A stretch of 24,000 bases of DNA from NCBI RefSeq assembly GCF_042683745.1, contig NZ_JBHUJX010000019.1, positions 203,978 to 227,977 of the forward strand. Reading direction: 5' to 3'. Below, piece after piece: positions 4,276 to 24,000 of this stretch. Each line of letters starts with the position of its first letter. Positions within the stretch are counted from its first letter, which is position 1. Source of the stretch: Bacillus sp. CGMCC 1.16607 (GTDB taxonomy: Bacteria; Bacillota; Bacilli; Bacillales; Cytobacillaceae). A program made the position numbers and the translations under genes. The notes below the pieces were generated by a model that searched no databases, had not been told where the DNA came from, and was given only the letters and a program-made list of their open reading frames with translations.

Positions 4276-5514
4276 TTAAATAAAAAACATCTCATCATTA
4301 AATAGATATAAAAAATTCTTCGTTTTCTCAGCTCTAATAAATCGATTTCTTCCTTGCTTTTTTGCTACGTATAAAGCATCATCAACTGCTTTTTTTAATG
4401 AATCTACTGTTTTTCCGTGATTTGGGAAAACAGCAACACCAGAACTGACTGATACGATGATTGAGTGTTCTAATATGATAAGTGGATTTTGTTTGTAATA
4501 CTCCATCAAATTATCATAAAGATTCTCCATCTCGTTTTCTAATGGAGATTTCATGATAATCATAAACTCATCTCCCGCGTAGCGGTAACCCTCAATGTTC
4601 TCCCCACAAACACTCTTGATTCCATCTGCCAATATCTTTAAATATCTATCGCCGATATCATGACCGAAATTATCATTTACCTTTTTTAAATGATCTGAAT
4701 CTATCATGATAAGGGTGATTTCTTGATTATTATCATTAATCATTTTTGATAAATCATCATGGAAAGCTCGGTGATTTTTTAACCCCGTTAATTCATCTGT
4801 TTGAGACATGACAAAGATCCTTCTGTATAGTCTGGCCGTTTCGATTGAATTGATCACCTGAGTCCCAATGATTTGCAGTAATTCTTCATGCTCTTTTCGA
4901 TAGGCAAAATCCGAATAGCTTTGAGCAGAAATCACTCCTCTGACATGATCATCAATAATGACAGGTACAAACAGACATGATCTAGTGATACCATCTGATC
5001 CATATAGAGCATTATATTCTTCTGATTGAGCTAACTGTTTCTGATGGACAATTTCCCTTGATAAAATCGCCTGGGTGGTATAATTATCACCTAATTCACG
5101 TATAATTGGTGGATAGTATTCCCCTTTATCCATAACAAACGTGAAATCTATCAATGACTCAGCTTCATTATAAAAAGCAATAAAAAAAGATTCCGTGTTC
5201 ATAACTTGAGAGACCATTTCATACGCTTTTTCAAGAAGTATATCCTCGTCCAATGTTTTACTACAAATTTGAGCAAAATCATGTAAAATTTTATAATGCT
5301 TATTCAACCAGCTCATATTTTCCATCTGATCATTTATTAATTCTAATTGAAGTAAGACGGAATCTACTATTTCTTTTTCTTCCCTATCTCCAATATGTTT
5401 TTCAAATTCTTCAAGAGTTTCTTTTGAAAGAATATTTTTTTGAACTCCAATATTTTTAAGCAAATGATTAATTAACGATAAAATCTCCTTATTTCCCATA
5501 TTTAACACTTCCAT
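4276..5514 (-). CDS. GAF-domain diguanylate cyclase (GGDEF domain with AGDEF active-site variant, no RxxD I-site)
   Basis: C-terminal GGDEF domain (ELTGLKNHRAF...IDSDHLKKVNDNFGHDIGDRYL...YRYAGDEFMII...ALYVAKKQGRNRF). Central GAF-like region. Start ambiguous between ATG 5514 and ATG 5499 (weak GGAAG RBS). Confidence 0.85.
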   Translation of the reverse strand: MEVLNMGNKEILSLINHLLKNIGVQKNILSKETLEEFEKHIGDREEKEIVDSVLLQLELINDQMENMSWLNKHYKILHDFAQICSKTLDEDILLEKAYEMVSQVMNTESFFIAFYNEAESLIDFTFVMDKGEYYPPIIRELGDNYTTQAILSREIVHQKQLAQSEEYNALYGSDGITRSCLFVPVIIDDHVRGVISAQSYSDFAYRKEHEELLQIIGTQVINSIETARLYRRIFVMSQTDELTGLKNHRAFHDDLSKMINDNNQEITLIMIDSDHLKKVNDNFGHDIGDRYLKILADGIKSVCGENIEGYRYAGDEFMIIMKSPLENEMENLYDNLMEYYKQNPLIILEHSIIVSVSSGVAVFPNHGKTVDSLKKAVDDALYVAKKQGRNRFIRAEKTKNFLYLFNDEMFFI

Positions 5515-5631: not shown

Positions 5632-5720
5632 AATTTTCGGTAACTGGCTGGCATTATCATTCGACTTAGCCCCTTTAGTTTTGCGTCCTCATTTTTCAAT
5701 GAGTTTGCCTTTTCTAAACG
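5632..5720 (-). ncRNA. c-di-GMP-I (GEMM-I) riboswitch aptamer
   Basis: Minus strand reads AAAAGGCAAAC-UCAUU-GAAA-AAUGA-GGACGCAAAAC...GGGGC...GCCAGCCAGUUACCG. It carries the conserved GGCAAAC, a GNRA-capped hairpin, GACGCAAA(G/A)C, CAGCC and GUUACC elements in the same order as Vc2-type GEMM-I RNAs. Confidence 0.75.
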
Positions 5721-7478: not shown

Positions 7479-7660
7479 AAAAAAATTCAGAAGCGCCTTG
7501 ATCAGCCCCGACAAGCAAATGCCGACCCAAAGAGGAGGTTTGCTCTTTAACTTCATCTTTGGGGCGCCATTTGATCTCGAGGTCGACAATAGCACGACGT
7601 CCTGTCGCATTGTCGACACTTGTACATCCTATACTTCGGGGCTAGGCGCTGGAGCTAGAT
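7479..7660 (+). repeat. Family-A structured intergenic element, copy 2 (medium form)
   Basis: AGAAGCGCCTTGATCAGCCCCGACAAGCAAATGCC ... CTCGAGGTCGACAAT...ATTGTCGAC ... CTTCGGGGCTAGGCGCTGGAGCT. It lacks the roughly 75-bp module that full-length copies carry between CCCCGA and CAAGCAAATG. Confidence 0.85.
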
Positions 7661-8062: not shown

Positions 8063-9160
8063 ATGATTTTACAAGAAAAGGTGCAGACTCTCCCTTCATC
8101 CCCTGGTGTTTATTTAATGAAAGATTCCGTCGGCGGAGTTATTTATGTAGGTAAGGCAAAAAATCTTAAAAGACGAGTTCAATCATATTTTCGAGACTCA
8201 AAGGGGCATTCTCCAAAAATAAAAAAGCTAGTAAAACATTTGAAGGATTTTGATTACATTCTGACCGATACAGAATTTGAAGCTTTTTTGCTGGAATGTC
8301 ACTTAATAAAAGAAATCAAACCAATCTACAATCGAAAAATGAAAAATCCTGGGTCATTTGTCTATATTAAGATTCACCAGACAAAAAGGAGCCCCAAGAT
8401 TGAAATAACCAATTGGTTCATGGAGGATGACGATCATTTTTATTTCGGTCCCTATACAAGTAGAAGTACTGTGGAAAAAGCAATCCAAGGTATTAAAGAA
8501 TGTTTTCAATTACTTTGCTCGAATCCCGCAAACAGCGGGTCTGCCTGTTTAAACTATTCCTTAGGATTGTGCAATGGAATTTGCCTTGGTGGTTCTGCGG
8601 TAGAAGAATATAACCGCATCATTGAAAAAGTCATTTCCTTACTTAATGGTACCGACATGGGCCTTATTAATGAAATGCAGCAAAAGATGCATAATGCTTC
8701 GCTTCATTTTGATTTTGAATCAGCAGCCAAGTATAGAGATCATATAGATGCAGTAGCCTTCTTACTAAAAAAAGAAAAAGTGATTGAATTCACAGAGCAG
8801 AACAAAAATATAGCCATCATCGAATCATTGACTCCATCAACTATCAAGCTTTTTCTTATTAAGAGGACAGAAATTCTTTTTACTGAAAAGTATGTTCTTA
8901 ATGACTTTCAATTAGGGGATTTAAGATCAATAATAAAGGAAAAAATATTGATGTATTTTAAAATGAAGGATAGAACATTTGTTGAAGTGGACAGAAATGA
9001 AATCGATGAAGCTCAGATTATATATAGTTATCTAACTAGCAAGCATTGCAACTATTTTGTTATCCAAGATAACTGTTTAGAAAATGAGAACAATGCCAAA
9101 CTAGGTGAAGAAATAACCCAGTTACTTGAAATTCAATACACAAAAAAACACTCAGGTTGA
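8063..9160 (+). CDS. UvrC N-terminal-half homologue (GIY-YIG nuclease, Cys-rich region and UVR domain; Cho-like)
   Basis: GIY-YIG motifs GVYLMKD...VIYVGKAKNLKRRVQSYF...EAFLLECHLIKEIKPIYN. UvrC-like Cys cluster CFQLLC...CLNYSLGLCNGIC. UVR motif FESAAKYRDHIDAV. It ends at 365 aa, before the position of the UvrC C-terminal RNase H-like endonuclease and HhH domains. GGAAGGA RBS. Confidence 0.8.
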   Translation: MILQEKVQTLPSSPGVYLMKDSVGGVIYVGKAKNLKRRVQSYFRDSKGHSPKIKKLVKHLKDFDYILTDTEFEAFLLECHLIKEIKPIYNRKMKNPGSFVYIKIHQTKRSPKIEITNWFMEDDDHFYFGPYTSRSTVEKAIQGIKECFQLLCSNPANSGSACLNYSLGLCNGICLGGSAVEEYNRIIEKVISLLNGTDMGLINEMQQKMHNASLHFDFESAAKYRDHIDAVAFLLKKEKVIEFTEQNKNIAIIESLTPSTIKLFLIKRTEILFTEKYVLNDFQLGDLRSIIKEKILMYFKMKDRTFVEVDRNEIDEAQIIYSYLTSKHCNYFVIQDNCLENENNAKLGEEITQLLEIQYTKKHSG

Positions 9161-14969: not shown

Positions 14970-14972
14970 ATT

Positions 14973-15254
14973 AGAAAAGCGTAAGCGCACTTGTAAGCTC
15001 CGATAAAGAAGACTGGTTGATTGGCGAGTGTAGCGAAGCCAGAGACCTAGTCGCACTTAGCAAAACGTTCTTTGGTTTGCCAAGCAAATGCTTCGAAACC
15101 CAGAAAGTCGTTCTTTGACTTTTTGGGTTTCGAACATTTGACCTCGAGATCGACAATAACGCGACCTCCTGTCGCTTTGTCGACACTAGTACGTAGTACG
15201 TCCTGTACGTCGGGGCTAGGCGCTGGAGCTGGACAATTTTCGCAGTCCAAAAAT
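14973..15254 (+). repeat. Family-A structured intergenic element, copy 3 (full length)
   Basis: Collinear with 1138-1425 across all modules. Starts 3 nt after the stop at 14969 and ends about 5 nt before the convergent stop at 15260. Confidence 0.9.
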
Positions 15255-15259
15255 TTCCT

Positions 15260-16834
15260 TCAATTCACTAACACATCAATTAATGTTAATTCTGATGGAT
15301 TGCTTAAGGCTGTCGTCAACATTTGTTCGAAATCAGCTAAATCTTTAGGTCTTACTCCTTTTATTCCAAAGCTCTTCGCTAATTGAACATAGTCAGGGTT
15401 TCCGAATGGTGTCCCGAAAGTACTATTAAATTTTTTTAACATCATTTGTTCTTCCAATTTCAATTTTCCATCGTTTAAAATAATGATAATCAATGAAGTG
15501 CCTAGGCGTTTTGCCGTCTCGATTTCAGCAAAATTCATCAAGGCTCCGCCATCGCCAGTAATACAAATAACATGTTCATCTGGGCATGCTAGTTTAGCCC
15601 CTATCGCACCAGGTATCGCGATTCCCATTGATGCTAAACCATTTGAAATAATCAGACCGTTCGCCTTCTTTGGTTGATAAGTGCGAGCAATGGATACTTT
15701 ATGAGCACCTACATCCGAGATGACAATCGATTTATCGGACGACAGTTTTTCTATTACGCTTATTACATTTTCTATTGATAGTAAAGGGTTCACTTCATTC
15801 GTATCGATTTGATAAGATTGTTTGATCTGTTCTTTCAGATTCCCACTTGGAACCCATGGTTTAGGTGAGGGCTCAAGCTTATGTAAAAATTGTTTTACTT
15901 CTCCCACCAATTCTAATTGCACAGGATAATATTCATCCATTTCTGCTGGTAGTGCATCAATATGTAATATAGGGAGTTTCTTTTTATTCCAATCCTTTGG
16001 TAGTCTTTCAACTAAATCAAATCCTATAACAATCAGTAAGTCTGATTCATCTATCACACGAGTAGCTTCATCCTTCTCTTTAAACCCAAACGTAAAGTAA
16101 TTGAGTGGGTGATTTTTAGAGAGTATACCTTTAGCCGTAAAACTATGAATAGCGGGTGACTGAAGTTTTTCAATAAAGGCTTGTACTTCCCCTATAGCGT
16201 TTTGCCTAATCACTCCATTTCCAATAATAATAAGTGGTTTCTTAGATTGTTGAATGAGTGAATAGGCATCTTTTATTGACTGTTCCACTGGACTAGTTGA
16301 AGGAATAGGTATAACTGGTAACGGAATAGTTGAAATCATTTGCGCTGCTAAATTCTCTGGTAATTCTATTAATACAGCTCCTGGCTTTTCCATTTTTGCT
16401 AATCGAAATGCCTTTCTAATGATCTCAGCCGTCGTTTCGGAATTTTTTATTTGGACACTCCACTTTGTTGAAGGTTCAAAAATTTTAACTAAATCCAAAT
16501 ATTGATGAGATTCTTTATGTTGCCTTTCAAAACCTGCCTGTCCTGTAATTGCTACAACCGGTGAATAGTCTAAATTTGCACTTGCAATTCCTGTTAATAA
16601 GTTGATAGCTCCAGGTCCTAATGTGGCTAAACATACTCCAACCTTATTTGATAATCGACCGTAGACATCTGCCATGAAAGCAGCACTCTGCTCATGCCGA
16701 ACAGTGATATACTGAATGTTTTGTGATTTTGACAAAGAATCAATTAGGTCGACTGTTTCTGAGCCCATGATTCCAAATATATACTCGACCCCTTCATTTT
16801 CTAAACATTGAACCATTAAATCTGTAACCTTCAT
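15260..16834 (-). CDS. Thiamine-pyrophosphate-dependent enzyme (acetolactate-synthase-like)
   Basis: N-terminal TPP-pyrimidine domain (LENEGVEYIFG..G...DLIDSL...RHEQSAAFMADVYGR, GPGAINLLTGIA). C-terminal TPP-binding motif (GDGGALMNFAEIETA...IIILNDG). Start set to ATG 16834; the substrate cannot be assigned. Confidence 0.8.
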   Translation of the reverse strand: MKVTDLMVQCLENEGVEYIFGIMGSETVDLIDSLSKSQNIQYITVRHEQSAAFMADVYGRLSNKVGVCLATLGPGAINLLTGIASANLDYSPVVAITGQAGFERQHKESHQYLDLVKIFEPSTKWSVQIKNSETTAEIIRKAFRLAKMEKPGAVLIELPENLAAQMISTIPLPVIPIPSTSPVEQSIKDAYSLIQQSKKPLIIIGNGVIRQNAIGEVQAFIEKLQSPAIHSFTAKGILSKNHPLNYFTFGFKEKDEATRVIDESDLLIVIGFDLVERLPKDWNKKKLPILHIDALPAEMDEYYPVQLELVGEVKQFLHKLEPSPKPWVPSGNLKEQIKQSYQIDTNEVNPLLSIENVISVIEKLSSDKSIVISDVGAHKVSIARTYQPKKANGLIISNGLASMGIAIPGAIGAKLACPDEHVICITGDGGALMNFAEIETAKRLGTSLIIIILNDGKLKLEEQMMLKKFNSTFGTPFGNPDYVQLAKSFGIKGVRPKDLADFEQMLTTALSNPSELTLIDVLVN

Positions 16835-16910: not shown

Positions 16911-16953
16911 AAGAAAAGCGGAAGCGCCTTTATTAGCCCCAATAAAGAAGACT
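16911..16953 (+). repeat. Family-A element, copy 4 (left-end fragment only)
   Basis: AGAAAAGCGGAAGCGCCTTTATTAGCCCCAATAAAGAAGACT matches the first roughly 43 bp of full-length copies, then diverges. Confidence 0.7.
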
Positions 16954-17027
16954 AAAAAAAGTTTGTATAATTCACTGGCTAGTCAAGTATGATTAAGTTA
17001 GAAATTCATTTTTATGGGGTGGAAATC

Positions 17028-17644: not shown

Positions 17645-18586
17645 TTAAGAAAATATTGGAAGTGTGACAATAACAGCCATTAGGAATATGATCGTTATAT
17701 AATTCACTGAATAAATGAAATTCACGCGCGCCCATTTTAGATCATCTTTTGTGAAAAAACCACTAATACACACAACTAACCAGCCAATATTTAGTGCGGT
17801 CGCAATGACAATAAAGGCTGTACCAAGTGACCCTAAATAAAATGGTAGTGGCAGTAAGCCCACAGTATAAATAGCCATTTGCCGCTTTGTCATTTCGAAA
17901 CCGTGGACAACTGGAAGCATCGCTACTTTTGCTGCTTTGTATTCTTCATATTTTCTTATGGCAATTGCAAAAGTATGTGGCATTTGCCAAATAAACAGGA
18001 TCAGAAACAACATAATCGGAACGACATGAAAACCTGGTGCAATGGCTGTCCAGCCTATTAATGGTGTAACTGCACCTGAAATACTTCCAATAACTGTATT
18101 AAGTGTATATCTTCGTTTAGACCACATCGTATACAAAATAACATACGTAAACCAACCAACGAATGCGTAAATAACTGATTCAAAGGTCGTAAATAATAAT
18201 AGAATAAAGCCAATAATAGTTAGGGCAATTCCTAATGCTAAAACCACTTTAAGAGAAATATTGCCTGTTACAGTTGGACGGTTTTTCGTTCTTTCCATGA
18301 TTGTATCAATGTCGACATCGTACCAATTATTAAGAATAAGTGCTCCAGCCATAACTAAAGTACTTCCGATTAATGTTAACCAAAATAAATCCAAGTGATC
18401 AGCTAATGATGCATCGGTAAAATAGAGCGCTAACCAAAAACCAGTAAATACTGGTAAGACATTTGCAATTAAAACAATTCCTTTAAATAATGACTTTAGA
18501 TCAGAAAGCAAACTAAAAAAACTTCGACCATTCGATAAAGCCGTTCCCCCAACCTTCTGTTGAGAAGGTATCTCATATTTGCTCAT
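17645..18586 (-). CDS. ctaB: Protoheme IX farnesyltransferase (heme O synthase)
   Basis: UbiA-family prenyltransferase with the CtaB/CyoE motifs LNNWYDVDIDTIMERTKNRP and YTLNTVIGSISGAVTPLIGW. Nine TM helices. GAGGAGG RBS. Confidence 0.9.
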   Translation of the reverse strand: MSKYEIPSQQKVGGTALSNGRSFFSLLSDLKSLFKGIVLIANVLPVFTGFWLALYFTDASLADHLDLFWLTLIGSTLVMAGALILNNWYDVDIDTIMERTKNRPTVTGNISLKVVLALGIALTIIGFILLLFTTFESVIYAFVGWFTYVILYTMWSKRRYTLNTVIGSISGAVTPLIGWTAIAPGFHVVPIMLFLILFIWQMPHTFAIAIRKYEEYKAAKVAMLPVVHGFEMTKRQMAIYTVGLLPLPFYLGSLGTAFIVIATALNIGWLVVCISGFFTKDDLKWARVNFIYSVNYITIIFLMAVIVTLPIFS

Positions 18587-18703
18587 TTAATATCCTCCTC
18601 TAAGAAGAAATCATACATTTGCAATGATACTGTATTTTGGACAGATTGTCATTTCAATTACATATATTTAGAAAAGAATATGATGGAAATTTAATTAGTT
18701 GAT

Positions 18704-18823
18704 AGAAAAGCGGAAGCGCACTTGTAAGCCCCGATAAAGTAGACTGGTCGATTGGCTAGAGTTACGTCGGGGCTGAGACGCTTGCGCTGGACAATTTTCG
18801 TAGTCCGGAAATGTTATACTTTT
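18704..18823 (+). repeat. Family-A element, copy 5 (left and right ends joined, internal modules absent)
   Basis: AGAAAAGCGGAAGCGCACTTGTAAGCCCCGATAAAGTAGACTGGTCGATTGGC joined directly to ACGTCGGGGCTGAGACGCTTGCGCTGGACAATTTTCGTAGTCCGGAAATGTTATACTTT. Confidence 0.85.
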
Positions 18824-18827
18824 TACT

Positions 18828-18858
18828 GAAAAAAGACACTCCAAATCGAGTGCCTTTT
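18828..18858 (-). terminator. Rho-independent terminator after the orf1-like membrane gene
   Basis: Minus-strand hairpin AGGCACTC / GAGTGTCT followed by TTTTTT, 18 nt after the stop at 18876. Confidence 0.7.
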
Positions 18859-18875
18859 CATTTATATTTATTATT

Positions 18876-19451
18876 TTAGGCATCCTCTTCTACCATTTCA
18901 TATTCAGAAGGGTCAATGAAAAAGGTATAACCTAAATAGATAACCATCCCTATAGCTGTTGTTAAAAATCCCCAGCCTAGAATAATTTGGTCAATCACCA
19001 AATAGTTATTACATAATTGGTCTTGGGATTGAATGTACAACCATCCTAATCCTAAAAATAGGATAGTAAAAAAAATAATGATGATATTTTTCCCTCTTGC
19101 CCCAAGCTTTTTCCAACTATCCCGTAACGGAATTCCCGCTAAAAAAGGTAGACTTATAAATTTAAACATTTCTACACCTTGTACCGTTAACGCCTCATCC
19201 ATTGTCCGCGGAAGCATCCAATACACCATAACAATTGAAAAGAGGATCATTCCGGGGACTCCATCACTATTCCATTTTTCAAAAAATCCTTTAAATCGTA
19301 CTTGGAAAAAACGTGCCATTAATAATCCGGCAATAACGAACATAGGCATTTGCATATGCATATGCATGATCATGACCGATTCCATAAACTTTGCTACAGG
19401 AGGAATAATTAAAAAGATAAATAACAATAACCCATAGAAAGATTGGTTCAT
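18876..19451 (-). CDS. Met/His-rich polytopic membrane protein, candidate metallation/assembly factor (orf1 of a norSY-senC-orf1-type cluster)
   Basis: 191 aa with about six TM helices. Motif MESVMIMHMHMQMPM at the start of TM2. Start ATG lies 3 nt after the SCO stop, with the AAAGGGGGA RBS inside the SCO gene end (translational coupling). Confidence 0.6.
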   Translation of the reverse strand: MNQSFYGLLLFIFLIIPPVAKFMESVMIMHMHMQMPMFVIAGLLMARFFQVRFKGFFEKWNSDGVPGMILFSIVMVYWMLPRTMDEALTVQGVEMFKFISLPFLAGIPLRDSWKKLGARGKNIIIIFFTILFLGLGWLYIQSQDQLCNNYLVIDQIILGWGFLTTAIGMVIYLGYTFFIDPSEYEMVEEDA

Positions 19452-19454
19452 CGT

Positions 19455-20087
19455 TTATTCCCCCTTTCCTTCATTAAGGATATTGATAATCGTTTTAGCT
19501 GCTTCATCAGGCTTCGTATAATCCATCACATTAACTAGGTTACCTTTTTTATCGACTAAATAAAAAGCCGAATTATGCGCAAAATTTCCATTTCCATCTG
19601 GAATAACTGTTACTCCGAACCTTTTTAATAAAGAATCTAATTCGGTTTGGTTCGGAATTCTTGCCATTCGCCAGGTTTCCCCATCACTATTAAAGATTTC
19701 TTTATATTGATCAAGTCTTGCTGGATCATCTCTGGTTGGGTCGAAGCTAATACTTAGAAATACAATCTCTTTTCCTATATTTTCACTGGGTAACAAATCG
19801 TACACTTGACCCATGTTTTTTTCCAATTGAGGGCATACCGTTCCACACGAAGTATACATAAATGTGATCAACACATATTTATCTTTGAACTCAGAAATAA
19901 AATATTCCCGTTCCTTGCTATCCTCCAACGTTACTTGAGGAAAGCTAGGCTTATCATCAATGAGTCGATTGACTCTCGCCGTTTCAGCTGTATAGGCTGT
20001 AAAACCATCTGTTCCAATATAAAATAAAACAATTCCAAAAAAGAAAACGAATAAATATGAAATGACAGTTTGCCGATTTTTAATCAT
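19455..20087 (-). CDS. SCO1/SenC-family copper chaperone (thioredoxin fold, membrane anchored)
   Basis: CxxxC motif (TSCGTVCPQ) and the distal His (FAHNSAFYLVDKKG) are both present, with an N-terminal TM anchor. Start set to ATG 20087 (GGGAAGTGG RBS), because the first 20 codons of the track ORF run through an upstream hairpin. Confidence 0.85.
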   Translation of the reverse strand: MIKNRQTVISYLFVFFFGIVLFYIGTDGFTAYTAETARVNRLIDDKPSFPQVTLEDSKEREYFISEFKDKYVLITFMYTSCGTVCPQLEKNMGQVYDLLPSENIGKEIVFLSISFDPTRDDPARLDQYKEIFNSDGETWRMARIPNQTELDSLLKRFGVTVIPDGNGNFAHNSAFYLVDKKGNLVNVMDYTKPDEAAKTIINILNEGKGE

Positions 20088-20127
20088 ATCGACCACTTCC
20101 CAAGTTAAAATTTCCAAATAAGTGTAT

Positions 20128-20164
20128 AAAGAGATAGCCCTAGACACCGAGCTATCTCTTTTTT
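20128..20164. other. Stem-loop between subunit I and SCO genes (possible intra-operon attenuator or processing site)
   Basis: AAAGAGATAGC (20128-20138) pairs with GCTATCTCTTT (20151-20161). The T-run is better on the plus strand (TTTTTT) than on the operon (minus) strand (TTTAT). Confidence 0.45.
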
Positions 20165-20187
20165 AAAAGATCATTTTTTCTTTTCTA

Positions 20188-20311
20188 ACTGTCCAGCTCC
20201 AGCGGCTAGCCCCTCGAGGTCAAAACCCAATCCGTCATGAAGGTTAAAGAACAACCTTCAAGCCGGCTCGTCTTTTGCTTGTCGGGGCTGATCAAGCCGC
20301 TTCCGCTTTTC
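20188..20311 (-). repeat. Family-A element, copy 6 (medium form, inverted orientation, inside the operon)
   Basis: Minus strand reads CGAAAAGCGGAAGCGGCTTGATCAGCCCCGACAAGCAAAAG...TTGAAGGTTGTTCTTTAACCTTCA...GACCTCGAGGGGCTAGCCGCTGGAGCTGGACAG. It begins 4 nt after the subunit I stop codon. Confidence 0.85.
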
Positions 20312-20314
20312 GTT

Positions 20315-22012
20315 TTACCAAGTCTTAAAAGGTGGTGAACCTGGAGGTGCATTTACAATCATATCTACTACTGGAATTACATAGGCCATTGCGACAACGA
20401 TGATCATAAGTACAACCCATAGTCCCCATCTTTCTGTCCAATATGGAGTTTTCGGTGCATTCTCTTCTTCTTCTGCAACTGGGAACTCTGTTACTCCTTT
20501 TGGTGCAAAGAACATCATATTAAATACGGCAAACACCTGAATCAGAACAGCAACCGTTAACACGGTTCCACCAATAGCTAACATCATCATATATGGATCC
20601 CAGCCTAATGTTGTTGCAAAGTCACCATATGTTGTATAGGAAGTTCTGCGTGGTGCACCAAACAATCCAACTGTGTGTTGAGCGCCTGACATTAATACCA
20701 TACCAATTGTCCAAAGAATCGTTTGGATAATACCTAGTTTATTTATTTGAGGTGTTAGTACACGTCCTGAAACATAAGGAACTAACCAATAAGAAACTCC
20801 AAAGAATGTTACGGCAACTGTTATACCTAATGTTAAGTGAAAATGGCCAACAACCCAGAGAGTGTTATGAACAACTTGGTCTAATTGGTTTGTGCTTTGA
20901 ACAATACCACCTGCACCAGCTGGAGCAAACGCTGCCATACCGATAAATGGAGCTAAGAAGCGAACATCACCCCATGGTAATTTCTTAAACCAACCAAAAG
21001 CACCTTTTCCACCTTTTGCTCTGCCTGTTTTTTCAAATACTCTAAACATCGCGTAAGCTGTCATCAATGATGGGAAACCGATTGCTAAACTCATAAATAC
21101 GTGCATAAATTTGATTTCTGGTGAAATCGCAGGGTCTACGATTTGATGGTGGAATCCACCAGTAATATTCATGATTACTAATGGAACGATAACCATACGA
21201 GTTAGTAGGTCACTCCAGCGATTACCACCGATTATTTTCGGCACGATGACGTACCATACAGATACAGCTGTTAAATACCAAATATTAACGGCTGTGTGTC
21301 CAAATGCCCAAAATAATGTACGTGCAAGCATTACATTAATTCCATCAACCCAACCATGAACCCATGGAATGATCATGAATAGTACTTCTGCTGCAACAAA
21401 TAATGTAGATCCTACTAAAAGAACATGAACGCCTGTAGCAAAGTAAGCTAAAATTGGTAGGTGTTGGCCTTTATGGGCTTTTCTCCAATTTGCTACTTGA
21501 ATAAAGATACTGATTGAATTCGTCCAAATACCTAGTACGATCAGAACTAATCCATAATAGAAAACTGGATGTGCTGCCAATGGTGGATAGAAGGTAAACA
21601 TAACAGAAGCTTCACCTAGTATAATCATGGTAGCAACCATTGCAACACCAAGAACTTCTAATGCAAAGCCAATCCAAGCCATTTTTCTAACGACCGGCAA
21701 TAGACCGCCTAATGTATGGGAAACACCTGCATAGAAGTATCCAATAGTAAAAGTGGCGCAAAAGACTAAAAGTAACAAAATTCCATGTGCGCTTAATACT
21801 TGATAATAATTAAGCCATGATGGCAACTCTAGCAGACCAGCACGGTTCAAACCTTGAACTAATCCTAATAGACCACCAAGAAGTAATGCGATAAAAGTGA
21901 CAGATAAATATGATTTCGTTATAATTGCATCTTGCAGGTTTGCACCTAGAACCTTATTTGTTTTTTCTTTAAAGACAGATTTCGTTTTTCCTGTTTGTAA
22001 GACTGATTCCAC
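20315..22012 (-). CDS. Heme-copper oxidoreductase subunit I, B-family (ba3)-like but lacking the cross-linked Tyr (sNOR/NorS-like candidate)
   Basis: Collinear with Thermus ba3 subunit I as I recall it. All six metal-ligand His are present (H76; H239; H288-H289 in GGFHHQ; H390 and H392 in GHFHL). The HPxVY motif reads H239-T-A-V-N243. GTG start with AAGGAGGG RBS. Confidence 0.9.
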   Translation of the reverse strand: MESVLQTGKTKSVFKEKTNKVLGANLQDAIITKSYLSVTFIALLLGGLLGLVQGLNRAGLLELPSWLNYYQVLSAHGILLLLVFCATFTIGYFYAGVSHTLGGLLPVVRKMAWIGFALEVLGVAMVATMIILGEASVMFTFYPPLAAHPVFYYGLVLIVLGIWTNSISIFIQVANWRKAHKGQHLPILAYFATGVHVLLVGSTLFVAAEVLFMIIPWVHGWVDGINVMLARTLFWAFGHTAVNIWYLTAVSVWYVIVPKIIGGNRWSDLLTRMVIVPLVIMNITGGFHHQIVDPAISPEIKFMHVFMSLAIGFPSLMTAYAMFRVFEKTGRAKGGKGAFGWFKKLPWGDVRFLAPFIGMAAFAPAGAGGIVQSTNQLDQVVHNTLWVVGHFHLTLGITVAVTFFGVSYWLVPYVSGRVLTPQINKLGIIQTILWTIGMVLMSGAQHTVGLFGAPRRTSYTTYGDFATTLGWDPYMMMLAIGGTVLTVAVLIQVFAVFNMMFFAPKGVTEFPVAEEEENAPKTPYWTERWGLWVVLMIIVVAMAYVIPVVDMIVNAPPGSPPFKTW

Positions 22013-22026
22013 GGTTCTTCCCTCCT

Positions 22027-22488
22027 TTATTTAACTGTTATCGTTGTACTCATTACTTGGTGGCCGGCACCGCAATATTCATTACATAACACAAGATACT
22101 TACCAGGCTTATCAAATTTTTGTGTGATTTTTTGAATATGTCCTGGCATAACCATTGCGTTGATATTCGTGTTAGCCACTTGGAATCCATGTACAACATC
22201 CTTTGATGTTAAGGTGAAATGTACAGTCGATCCTGCCGGTACTTCAATATTCCCTGGGTTAAAGCTAAAAATCTGAAGCGTCATAACGACTTCATATTCA
22301 TTTTCACCAATCTTTTTAACACCTGGTTGATCGAATGGGGCTGTTTGATCTACTTTTTGTGGATCAATCGTTTCTTTATGACTTGGTGGTTCCATTCCTA
22401 AGGCAAATCCTTGGTAACCTGTAATAATCATAAAGATCATGATCATACCGAAACTTAAAGCAAGCCATATTTTTTCATCTTTATGCAT
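22027..22488 (-). CDS. Heme-copper oxidoreductase subunit II with intact CuA site (ba3 CbaB-like / NorY-like)
   Basis: Single N-terminal TM helix, cupredoxin domain, and complete CuA ligands: H in DVVHGF plus C-N-E-Y-C-G-A-G-H-Q-V-M. Confidence 0.9.
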   Translation of the reverse strand: MHKDEKIWLALSFGMIMIFMIITGYQGFALGMEPPSHKETIDPQKVDQTAPFDQPGVKKIGENEYEVVMTLQIFSFNPGNIEVPAGSTVHFTLTSKDVVHGFQVANTNINAMVMPGHIQKITQKFDKPGKYLVLCNEYCGAGHQVMSTTITVK

Positions 22489-22500
22489 TTTCTTTCCCCC

Positions 22501-22647
22501 CTATACTCTAGCCATAAATAGACCGAATAGTACAAAATACGTAATAAGAATGACTCCTCCAACTATTCCTACAGAAATCCACGTCCCTACTTTCGAATCG
22601 TGGTCTTTATCTAACTTTTCTTCACGGTTAACTTTTGTAGTTGCCAC
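22501..22647 (-). CDS. Unannotated 48-aa single-TM protein, subunit IIa (CbaD)-like
   Basis: GTG start 10 nt after AAGGAGG. Translation: MATTKVNREEKLDKDHDSKVGTWISVGIVGGVILITYFVLFGLFMARV. The stop is 12 nt before the subunit II ATG. One TM helix ends in F-x-A-R, like the Thermus ba3 subunit IIa C-terminus (..VFFARG). It is below the size cut-off of the ORF track. Confidence 0.6.
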   Translation of the reverse strand: MATTKVNREEKLDKDHDSKVGTWISVGIVGGVILITYFVLFGLFMARV

Positions 22648-22681: not shown

Positions 22682-22746
22682 ATTTTAAATGCGAATCATT
22701 ATCAGCGTAGTGAACTGAATCACATGCAACTGTGATTTTACTAACA
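22682..22746 (-). promoter_or_regulatory. Fnr/Crp-type activated promoter: two TGTGA-N6-TCAC(A/T) boxes plus TAAAAT -10
   Basis: Minus strand reads TGTTA-GTAAAA-TCACA (22731-22746), 6 nt, TGTGA-TTCAGT-TCACT (22709-22724), 21 nt, TAAAAT (22682-22687). The proximal box centre is about 41-42 nt upstream of the predicted start site, and box centres are 22 bp apart. Confidence 0.6.
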
Positions 22747-22750
22747 CTCC

Positions 22751-22797
22751 AAATAAAAAAGCAGCGAACAACCTCTTCAAAGGTTTTATCGCTGCTT
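22751..22797 (-). terminator. Rho-independent terminator upstream of the Fnr boxes
   Basis: Minus-strand hairpin AAGCAGCGA ... TCGCTGCTT (with an inner AACCT/AGGTT stem) followed by TTTTTTATTT. Confidence 0.75.
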
Positions 22798-23055: not shown

Positions 23056-24000
23056 CTACACATTAGCCGAAAAATAGTGGCTTCCTTGTGTTTGGAAAAA
23101 CCAATTAGCAAAATCTAATTGAGCCAATGGCTGACTAATGTAATAGCCTTGAACTTGATTGCACTTAATTTCATGTAAAAAGTCTATCTGACTTATTGTT
23201 TCTACACCTTCGGCTATTACTGTCAGTTGTAAATTGTGCCCCATTTCAACTATGCTTTTTACAATGGCCTTTGCTTTTTCATTTTCAGCTAGTTCTAAAT
23301 CCCGAATAAAGGTCCTGTCCACCTTTAAAGTATCAATAGGTAAATCTTTTAAATAACTAAGGGAGGAGTATCCCGTTCCAAAGTCATCGATTGAAATTTT
23401 TATACCCAAATCTCTTAGATCATAGAGCAGTTGAATAGCATGATCAGACTGCTGCATGATACTTTCTGTAATTTCCAATTCTAAATTTTCCGGTCTAAGT
23501 TTTGTTTGGGCTAATGTAGTGCGAACGATTTCGACTAGGTTGGGTTGGTGGAGCTGTTTAACAGATAGATTCACAGACATTAATATATCGATTCCATTAT
23601 CCTTCCAAGCATTCAATTGCCTACATGCTTCGGCGATTACCCACTCTCCAATTGAATCGATTAACCCTGACTCTTCTGCTATTGGAACAAATTCTAGTGG
23701 GGATATAATACCAAGCTCAGGATGCTTCCATCGTAACAACGCTTCCGCACCAACCACTTCTCCATTGGTAATACAACATTTTGGTTGGTATAGAAGATAA
23801 AGTTCTTTGTTTTTAATTGCCTTTCTTAGTCCTTTTTCAAGCTCGATTCTTCTTGCATACATTTCTTTCATATCTGAATTGTAAAATTGAATACGATTAT
23901 GATCCTTTTCTTTTGCAAGATAAAGGGCTGCATGTGAATTTTTTTTCAATGCTTCCAACTCAGTTCCATCCTCTGGGTATAAAGAAATTCCTATTCTTGG
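23056..24000 (-). CDS. GGDEF-EAL protein, partial (N-terminus beyond window end); EAL domain appears catalytically competent
   Basis: EAL motifs are intact (QPK...GAEALLRW, EITES, DDFGTGYSSLSYL, AEGVET, QGY). The frame stays open upstream of the track start to position 24000, reading ...RIGISLYPEDGTELEALKKNSHAALYLAKEKDHNRIQFY, which is the C-terminal end of a GGDEF domain. Confidence 0.85.
   Translation of the reverse strand, partial: PRIGISLYPEDGTELEALKKNSHAALYLAKEKDHNRIQFYNSDMKEMYARRIELEKGLRKAIKNKELYLLYQPKCCITNGEVVGAEALLRWKHPELGIISPLEFVPIAEESGLIDSIGEWVIAEACRQLNAWKDNGIDILMSVNLSVKQLHQPNLVEIVRTTLAQTKLRPENLELEITESIMQQSDHAIQLLYDLRDLGIKISIDDFGTGYSSLSYLKDLPIDTLKVDRTFIRDLELAENEKAKAIVKSIVEMGHNLQLTVIAEGVETISQIDFLHEIKCNQVQGYYISQPLAQLDFANWFFQTQGSHYFSANV

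Follow-up and report, generated by a model that had tools for sequence, protein, structure and literature searches.

A probable bNOR-type nitric oxide reductase operon in Bacillus sp. CGMCC 1.16607, and leads on its regulation and assembly

The DNA considered here is a 24,000 nt stretch of Bacillus sp. CGMCC 1.16607 (contig NZ_JBHUJX010000019.1, positions 203,978 to 227,977; "the window" denotes this stretch at its full length), which harbours on its minus strand a cluster of five genes, cbaC-cbaB-cbaA-senC-cbaD, for a heme-copper enzyme resembling the ba3 oxidases. With a probability of around 0.9, this cluster encodes bNOR (formerly qCuANOR or CuANOR), a nitric oxide (NO) reductase, along with its maturation genes, and is the ortholog of BAZO_06394-06409 of Bacillus azotoformans. 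The assignment draws on the shared order of the five genes, on orthology to the B. azotoformans cluster, on membership of the same clade and on the conservation of key residues. An earlier reading of the letters alone (the original prediction) had proposed an NO reductase lacking the cross-link tyrosine, of the sNOR type; the functional part of this proposal stands, whilst the sNOR label does not, as 200 of 200 bootstraps place the window protein together with the enzyme purified from B. azotoformans. Annotation routinely mislabels members of this family "cbb3-type cytochrome c oxidase subunit I", and a different nitrogen-oxide metabolism is predicted for the strain once the cluster is recognised as bNOR.

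Gene cluster and active site

The open reading frames (ORFs) originally listed, for subunit II, subunit I, SenC/SCO1 and a membrane protein, are all present on the minus strand at the positions given, and are joined by a small gene, cbaC, that had not been described. The layout of the cluster is as follows, in window coordinates.

22501-22647, minus strand: cbaC, a 48 aa single-helix peptide, with a good ribosome-binding site (AGGAGG) upstream
22027-22488, minus strand: cbaB, subunit II, 153 aa, matching COX2 in Pfam and NCBIfam
20315-22012, minus strand: cbaA, subunit I, 565 aa, with a GTG start at 22012, matching COX1 in Pfam and NCBIfam
19455-20147, minus strand: senC ORF, 230 aa, SCO1-SenC (Pfam PF02630)
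19455-20087, minus strand: senC from its likely start, ATG 20087, orthologs beginning MIKNR
18876-19451, minus strand: cbaD, a membrane protein of 191 aa, without a Pfam or NCBIfam family at the default threshold
18829-18854, minus strand: terminator-like hairpin, GGCACTC-gatttg-GAGTGTC followed by TTTTTT, 3′ of cbaD at the operon end; read from the sequence, with the scan returning the same hairpin on the plus strand

Consensus scans for promoters and terminators performed overall no better than on shuffled sequence, and the sites cited in this report were verified by reading the sequence. The cbaD product is identical (100%) to ACFSO7_13470 of Bacillus sp. CGMCC 1.16607, and no RNA family was found by Rfam within the cluster.

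Alignment of CbaA to subunit I of the Thermus thermophilus ba3 oxidase (Protein Data Bank (PDB) entries 1EHK and 3S8F) gave a HMMER E-value of 1e-86, with the two proteins, approximately 34% identical, being collinear over residues 32-557 with few gaps. The systems share a collinear 13-helix subunit I, its six histidines, a CuA-bearing subunit II and a small single-helix subunit, but differ in that SenC and CbaD genes form part of the window operon. As originally noted, all six histidines are retained: by alignment, H76 and H392 would ligate the low-spin heme b, H390 the high-spin heme, and H239, H288 and H289 the non-heme metal. The Thermus motif GHPIVY237 (H233-P-I-V-Y237) lies opposite GHTAVN243 (H239-T-A-V-N243) in CbaA, with the H239-N243 codons occupying 21284-21298 when translation begins at GTG 22012, exactly as predicted. 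A tyrosine at the cross-link position was sought in the HMMER alignment, and Asn was found in its place; as such, no His-Tyr cofactor can form.

CbaA stands apart from several other heme-copper families. The HPxVY hallmark of the B-family O2 reductases, which supplies the His-Tyr cofactor, is disrupted by N243 at the Tyr position, and the residue four places after the histidine is Asn, as had correctly been pointed out for cNOR, rather than the Glu of cNOR, qNOR and nNOR. Whilst cNOR and qNOR lack a CuA subunit, one is encoded in this cluster. In gNOR a CuB histidine is replaced by Asp and subunit II is without CuA ligands (PMC11214002), whereas CbaA keeps all three histidines, in agreement with the earlier remark that no such replacement had occurred, and CbaB has a full CuA site. 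In eNOR the residue is Gln, within GHxxQQ (as in the cluster of a Thermus plasmid, L049, that of a Defluviimonas plasmid, L050, and the protein P0182), compared with GHTAVN in the window. A-family and other oxidases match CbaA only marginally. The cbaA product is best read, from its sequence, as a B-family-derived heme-copper enzyme without the cross-link tyrosine that functions as a nitric oxide reductase.

The presumed proton path is largely, although not entirely, that of ba3. Thermus LLPAY244 aligns with YLTAV250 in CbaA (P-A-Y244 against T-A-V250), and PSLMTAFT315 with PSLMTAYA321, in which S309 and T312 are retained and T315 becomes Ala; both replacements, of the Tyr of PAY by Val and of the second Thr of PSLMTAFT by Ala, had been proposed previously and are evident in the alignment. 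The rest of the B-family K-channel analogue is kept, with CbaB E5 and CbaA S267, Y254, T318 and S315 corresponding to Thermus E15 of subunit II, S261, Y248, T312 and S309. Across the window protein and 47 full-length orthologs, no variation is seen in the H-T-x-V-N motif, Y254, S315, T318 or A321, only aliphatic residues or Thr occur at position 250, and the three histidines of the non-heme metal site together with the Asn are conserved in 48/48 sequences. The two K-channel changes extend throughout the family, including the characterised enzyme, and are thus family traits rather than a peculiarity of the window gene.

Subunit II (CbaB) matches its Thermus counterpart with an E-value of 7e-35, E5 aligning with E15 at the K-channel entrance, and displays a single hydrophobic segment, equivalent to one transmembrane helix. 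Its CuA site is complete (H100, C135, E137, C139, H143 and M146), with every ligand that had been claimed being found. CbaC, which is homologous to a 46 aa peptide of B. azotoformans (MATTK..GT.I.VGIVG.VIL.TY) and was located by tblastn in 39/48 loci of the ortholog set described below, is by this analogy the small third subunit. SenC, which is anchored in the membrane, possesses C101-G-T-V-C105 and H191 (in the numbering of the 230 aa ORF) and would load CuA. Beyond the subunits proper, extra weak cupredoxin or CuA-like matches to CbaB adjoin four bNOR clusters (L017 4985-5206, L022 4962-5204, L026 10818-11138 and L043 9267-9488), those of L017 and L022 sitting directly upstream of cbaC.

Were the window enzyme to work as its ortholog does, electrons would be delivered to the CuA centre of CbaB by membrane-bound cytochrome c551, the donor of the B. 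azotoformans enzyme (PMC8139620). From CuA they would proceed to the low-spin heme b of CbaA (H76, H392), and onwards to a binuclear site in which the high-spin heme (H390) is paired with the non-heme metal on H239, H288 and H289. There, two molecules of NO would be reduced to N2O and water, and as this is a two-electron reaction, the tyrosine radical of a redox-active His-Tyr cofactor would be dispensable, which explains the presence of Asn243 in its place. Protons would be drawn from the cytoplasm through the K-channel analogue described above (CbaB E5; CbaA S267, Y254, T318 and S315), such that turnover would be electrogenic and build membrane potential. With regard to cofactors, the enzyme purified by Suharti et al. 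in 2001 reportedly held one non-heme iron and two coppers in addition to its two hemes b.

Orthologs, phylogeny and competing assignments

A scan for orthologs, taking one genome per species, returned 48 loci, all of which, like all of the named homologs, belong to the Bacillales. The order cbaB-cbaA-senC-cbaD is the same in every one of them, with the exception of one locus that is cut at a contig end. One member of the set, L027, is contig42 of Schinkia azotoformans LMG 9581, with coordinates as published for B. azotoformans LMG 9581, the strain sequenced by Heylen and Keltjens in 2012 (PMC3475470). The cluster that they describe comprises cbaC1 (138 bp), cbaB1 (462 bp), cbaA1 (1707 bp), senC1 (636 bp) and cbaD1 (570 bp), and its CbaB1 and CbaC1 N-termini are the peptides that Suharti and co-workers obtained from the purified NO reductase qCuANOR (PMC3475470). 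The same N-termini are encoded in L027, where CbaB matches the published peptide at 20/20 positions; residues 1-20 of the window CbaB match at 17/20. Subunit I of this enzyme, BAZO_06399, likewise has Asn in place of the cross-link tyrosine (PMC3475470). The original statement that the family is predicted from genomes yet uncharacterised is consequently incorrect, as the ortholog has been purified as qCuANOR and characterised; by the same token, the enzyme itself holds nothing new.

Between the window and L027, identity is 72-73% for CbaA, 82% for CbaB against BAZO_06394, 66% for SenC, 68% for CbaD and 52% for CbaC. The two clusters have five genes of the same order and sizes, an identical helix VI motif (AFGHTAVNIWYLTAVS), the same K-channel residues and CuA site, and a small peptide subunit. 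They differ in that ctaB lies directly downstream in the window only, with none at the B. azotoformans locus, and in a repeat element inserted between cbaA and senC in the window. A Crp/Fnr-type box scoring 9/10 precedes both, although the sequences of the two boxes differ.

The B. azotoformans enzyme was renamed bNOR by Murali et al. in 2024 (PMC11214002). This family is confined to the Bacillales, arose inside the B-family oxidases, and has CuA, a conserved K-type channel and electrogenic turnover (PMC11214002; PMC5826923). For the window protein, an exhaustive HMMER search was made of 1.84 billion representatives, with sequences being fetched from the best 150. The nearest full-length relatives in this search are Tyr-bearing B-family oxidases of about 44% identity, the closest relatives outside bNOR spanning 42-48% overall, and amongst the sequences fetched the only proteins with an HxxxN arrangement that cover the motif are bNOR fragments. 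A neighbour-joining tree was then built from 37 sequences over 547 columns, using Kimura distances and 200 bootstraps. In this tree, a single clade, recovered in 200/200 bootstraps, unites the 13 HxxxN sequences, amongst them those of the window and B. azotoformans, to the exclusion of all others, and this clade joins Tyr-bearing B-family oxidases of Bacillales (Brevibacillus L051, P0121 and P0122), again in 200/200. This topology is the one reported for bNOR by Murali et al. (PMC11214002). The phylogenetic placement of subunit I that had been suggested as a check thus puts it in the bNOR clade with B. azotoformans, in a tree whose 37 sequences hold no sNOR reference.

Sequences of the eNOR type place elsewhere in the tree. 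Such enzymes (Rhodothermus marinus type) resemble the window cluster as B-family-related NO reductases with a subunit II, and that of L050 is also linked to a heme o synthase and a SCO protein; however, they carry GHxxQQ in helix VI, share only 24-25% identity with CbaA and form a separate clade. One of these clusters, annotated as ba3 and consisting of a small ORF, cbaB_2 and subunit 1 with GHGAQQ, is found at 3121-5978 of L049 (plasmid pTF27b of Thermus thermophilus TF27), between nirS and a gene for an Rrf2-family regulator. It occurs on ten Thermus plasmids and probably encodes an NO reductase to which the oxidase label has been given in error. Separately, four B-family subunit I relatives of full or nearly full length (P0129, P0142, P0145 and P0148) are missing at least one CuB histidine, for example with FGNGLEY and GLVRQ in place of GH...HH; these are possibly degenerate enzymes, or else members of other families that have been proposed.

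The sNOR label itself, i.e. an enzyme of the norSY-senC-orf1 type of ammonia oxidisers, known only from genomes, is now scarcely credible. Its attraction is readily understood, as sNOR also has bNOR-like active-site residues, with Asn for the cross-link tyrosine, and a CuA subunit, and is accompanied by similar-looking genes for SenC and a membrane protein (PMC11214002; PMC3475470; PMC6967387); indeed, Heylen and Keltjens equated their type I cluster with sNOR (PMC3475470). The gene content of norSY-senC-orf1 is present, as originally stated, but it is not diagnostic, since bNOR is accompanied by the same set of accessory genes. Moreover, bNOR and sNOR are not closely related, forming clades whose active sites are alike by convergence only (PMC11214002). 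By description, sNOR is without the S309 Ser and has a Glu elsewhere, whereas bNOR keeps the B-type K channel including S309 (PMC11214002); the equivalent Ser of the window (S315, within PSLMTAYA) is retained and invariant in 48/48 sequences. A second Asn-bearing cluster of B. azotoformans, type II, differs in that its subunit I has 12 helices and about 493 aa and its subunit II has two helices (PMC3475470), as opposed to the 565 aa CbaA, collinear with 13-helix ba3, and the one-helix CbaB of the window. By elimination, this type II cluster would correspond to the sNOR attributed to the organism by Murali et al. Amongst the tblastn plasmid hits inspected, no sNOR was recognised, with B-family and eNOR-type genes being found instead.

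It is also highly unlikely, albeit slightly less so, that the window enzyme operates without the Tyr cofactor either primarily as an O2 reductase of high affinity or on both O2 and NO. The sNOR of Nitrosomonas europaea, itself an Asn-type enzyme, has been proposed to play such a role (PMC6967387), the closest relatives of the bNOR family are O2-reducing B-family oxidases, and the window enzyme retains its CuA centre, the greater part of the K channel and all three histidines of a CuB-type site. Set against this, O2 reduction by heme-copper enzymes is held to need a redox-active tyrosine (PMC11214002), at a position where Asn is invariant here, and purification of the ortholog, with its 72-73% identity, yielded an NO reductase that turns over NO at a very high rate (PMC3475470; PMC5826923). 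The predicted Crp/Fnr class II promoter, considered below, points in addition to anoxic expression.

A more serious contender, though still short of an even chance, concerns physiology rather than family: the enzyme may be a bNOR that serves NO detoxification or stand-alone NO respiration, and not a step of denitrification. The 24 kb window is devoid of nar, nir and nos genes, the genes flanking the cluster differ from genome to genome, and in a survey of Bacillota 73 genomes were NO reducers only, with bNOR in 123/433 genomes. Conversely, the gene evidence covers the window only, denitrification genes are usually scattered in Bacillota, and a Crp/Fnr box fits either role.

Several points count against the bNOR assignment, or limit what follows from it. 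Thermus K-channel residues Y244 and T315 are replaced in CbaA by V and A, respectively, giving a proton path that differs in part from the one in ba3. CbaA differs from the characterised enzyme at approximately 27% of positions, and activity, metal and heme are carried over by orthology. The exclusion of sNOR comes from membership of the bNOR clade and from traits published for the families, rather than from a joint tree. With no nar, nir or nos genes in the window, the role may be in denitrification or in NO detoxification, whilst the adjacency of ctaB means that the heme type may differ from that of the B. azotoformans enzyme.

Promoter, CbaD and heme type

Three elements upstream of cbaC make up the putative promoter.

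22709-22724, minus strand: Crp/Fnr-type box TGTGATTCAGTTCACT, 9/10 to TGTGA-N6-TCACA
22690-22704, minus strand: Fur-box-like 7-1-7 element TGATAATGATTCGCA, 12/14 to TGATAATNATTATCA, between the Crp/Fnr box and the -10
22682-22687, minus strand: -10-like hexamer TAAAAT, 21 nt downstream of the box, with no -35-like hexamer at 17 nt

Measured from the first base of the -10 hexamer, the centre of the Crp/Fnr box is 29.5 nt upstream, equating to about -41.5, and this geometry, in the absence of a -35-like hexamer, resembles a class II Crp/Fnr-activated promoter. The arrangement is widely conserved: in 46/46 upstream regions a box with at least 8/10 matches occurs between -66 and -99 relative to the start of cbaC (at least 9/10 in 36/46), against an estimated chance expectation of about 1.5 loci at the 8/10 level, and a TAnnAT hexamer follows the box by 21-22 nt in most orthologous loci. 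Within the 24 kb window, TGTGA-N6-TCAC is found twice, versus 0.11 occurrences expected. The operon is hence probably driven by a class II Crp/Fnr-dependent promoter, from which induction under anoxia would follow. In 7/48 loci a gene for a Crp/Fnr-family regulator is situated directly downstream of cbaD on the opposite strand (for example Oceanobacillus L026, 9726-10469, minus strand), which fits the conserved box.

The second element is less uniform. Most loci have a Fur-like sequence at an identical offset of 4 nt past the box, and it scores at least 11/14 in 16/46 loci, compared with 0.35% of background windows; as the loci are related, these counts are not independent events. A perfect TGATAATCATTATCA is found at this offset in L017, L022 and L031. 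The 7-1-7 consensus used for scoring (TGATAATNATTATCA) is what we take to be that of Bacillus Fur, and a protein of the Fur family is inferred to bind the element. An NsrR site was also considered for the spacer element, which bears no evident resemblance to NsrR motifs.

Two other readings of the box were considered. The sequence ATCACA-N6-TGTGAT (22735-22718) could be taken as an everted palindrome and not an Fnr site, but was rejected, as the conserved element is the adjacent TGTGA-N6-TCAC(T/A), with which it has the TGTGA half in common. A Rex operator (TTGTGAA-N4-TTCACAA) is disfavoured, given that the conserved sixth base is T and not A and that a position of -41.5 without a -35 seems better suited to an activator. 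In the window, a TCACA half-site precedes the box by 6 nt (22718-22735, minus strand), so that three half-sites stand in a row, ATCACA-N6-TGTGAT-N4-TTCACT; this arrangement recurs only in Virgibacillus L041 and L042. The only other exact TGTGA-N6-TCAC in the window (8780-8794, minus strand) lies inside an ORF with GIY-YIG/UVR domains (8063-9160) and is probably due to chance. Just upstream of the promoter is a further terminator-like hairpin, AGCAGCGA ... TCGCTGCT followed by TTTTTT (22755-22796, minus strand), located some 260 nt downstream of the stop codon of a gene for an EAL phosphodiesterase, with no ORF of note between.

Regulators of the cluster are not discussed by Heylen and Keltjens (PMC3475470), and the conserved Crp/Fnr box and Fur-like element are put forward here as new, putative features. 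Taken together, they suggest that bNOR operons of Bacillaceae may have a composite promoter, in which a class II Crp/Fnr site is combined with a Fur-family operator over the -35/spacer region. If so, expression would need anoxia and would also respond to NO, via nitrosylation of Fur iron, or to iron supply.

CbaD appears to be an obligatory companion of the enzyme. It contains an invariant motif, H30-M-H32-M-Q34, which is likewise proposed as a new candidate feature, and other invariant residues including P81, M84, D85, S112, W113 and C147. Its AlphaFold2 model is all-helical with a pLDDT of 88, and a fold search of the PDB with this model gave no match; a weak relation to DUF1404 was detected, with 9/43 members matching at a best E-value of 8e-6. 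Genes for SenC and CbaD are absent beside the two Tyr-bearing sister oxidase loci inspected (L051 and L053), and the NorQD metal chaperones are not found in CuANOR clusters (PMC12067857). Since CbaD is present at every bNOR locus, is absent from the inspected Tyr-bearing sisters and occurs in clusters that do without NorQD, a role in metal delivery or assembly is a reasonable idea. Metal handling is the other wording of this suggestion, and in those NO reductases that lack NorQD, CbaD might supply the missing factor by which the non-heme metal is inserted.

The heme of the active site is touched on by a gene located immediately beyond the operon.

17645-18586, minus strand: ctaB, heme o synthase, 313 aa (TIGR01473, 268 bits)
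18652-18624, minus strand: promoter-like site of ctaB, read from the sequence
about 17624-17588, minus strand: terminator hairpin of ctaB itself, read from the sequence

By the look of these sites, ctaB is a neighbour with a separate transcription unit; the earlier claim that it has its own promoter and terminator is supported by the hairpin 3′ of the membrane ORF, the promoter-like site and the hairpin of ctaB. It is possibly the source of heme o. Heylen and Keltjens suggested a possible heme o3 active site in Bacillus bataviensis from a nearby ctaB (PMC3475470), and in 17/48 loci of the present set ctaB is found within 6 kb of the cluster. With such adjacency in about a third of loci, some bNORs could carry heme o in the active site. 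A joint reading, in which bNOR operons combine the composite promoter, CbaD as a metal-insertion factor and, in some cases, heme o, is tentative and rather doubtful as a whole. Nevertheless, the promoter architecture and the CbaD motif provide two testable leads on the regulation and assembly of an electrogenic NO reductase.

Other features of the window

A modular intergenic repeat is present in six copies within the 24 kb.

1138-1425: repeat copy
7482-7659: repeat copy
14972-15264: repeat copy
16911-16970: repeat copy
18703-18822: repeat copy
20187-20311: repeat copy, minus strand, between cbaA and senC

The full form is approximately 290 nt and the short form approximately 120 nt, with conserved ends GAAAAGCGGAAGCG..CAGCCCCGA and TCGGGGCT..GCTGGACAATTTTC. 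As RNA, the copy between cbaA and senC folds strongly, with a minimum free energy of -53.6 kcal/mol (z -4.1), and a partial copy resides at the same place in Pseudoneobacillus rhizosphaerae (L002, 7722-7758). It is probably a passenger element and not part of the enzyme system.

The remaining genes of the window include those for a thiamine-pyrophosphate (TPP) enzyme, a DesK-type two-component pair, PTS components, PspA, a chemoreceptor, a GGDEF-GAF protein and an EAL phosphodiesterase. The phosphodiesterase gene (23056-23958) is located just upstream of the cba genes, and a cyclic di-GMP-I (c-di-GMP-I) riboswitch (Rfam RF01051, 74 bits; 5636-5719, minus strand) precedes a gene for a GAF-GGDEF diguanylate cyclase (4276-5514, minus strand).

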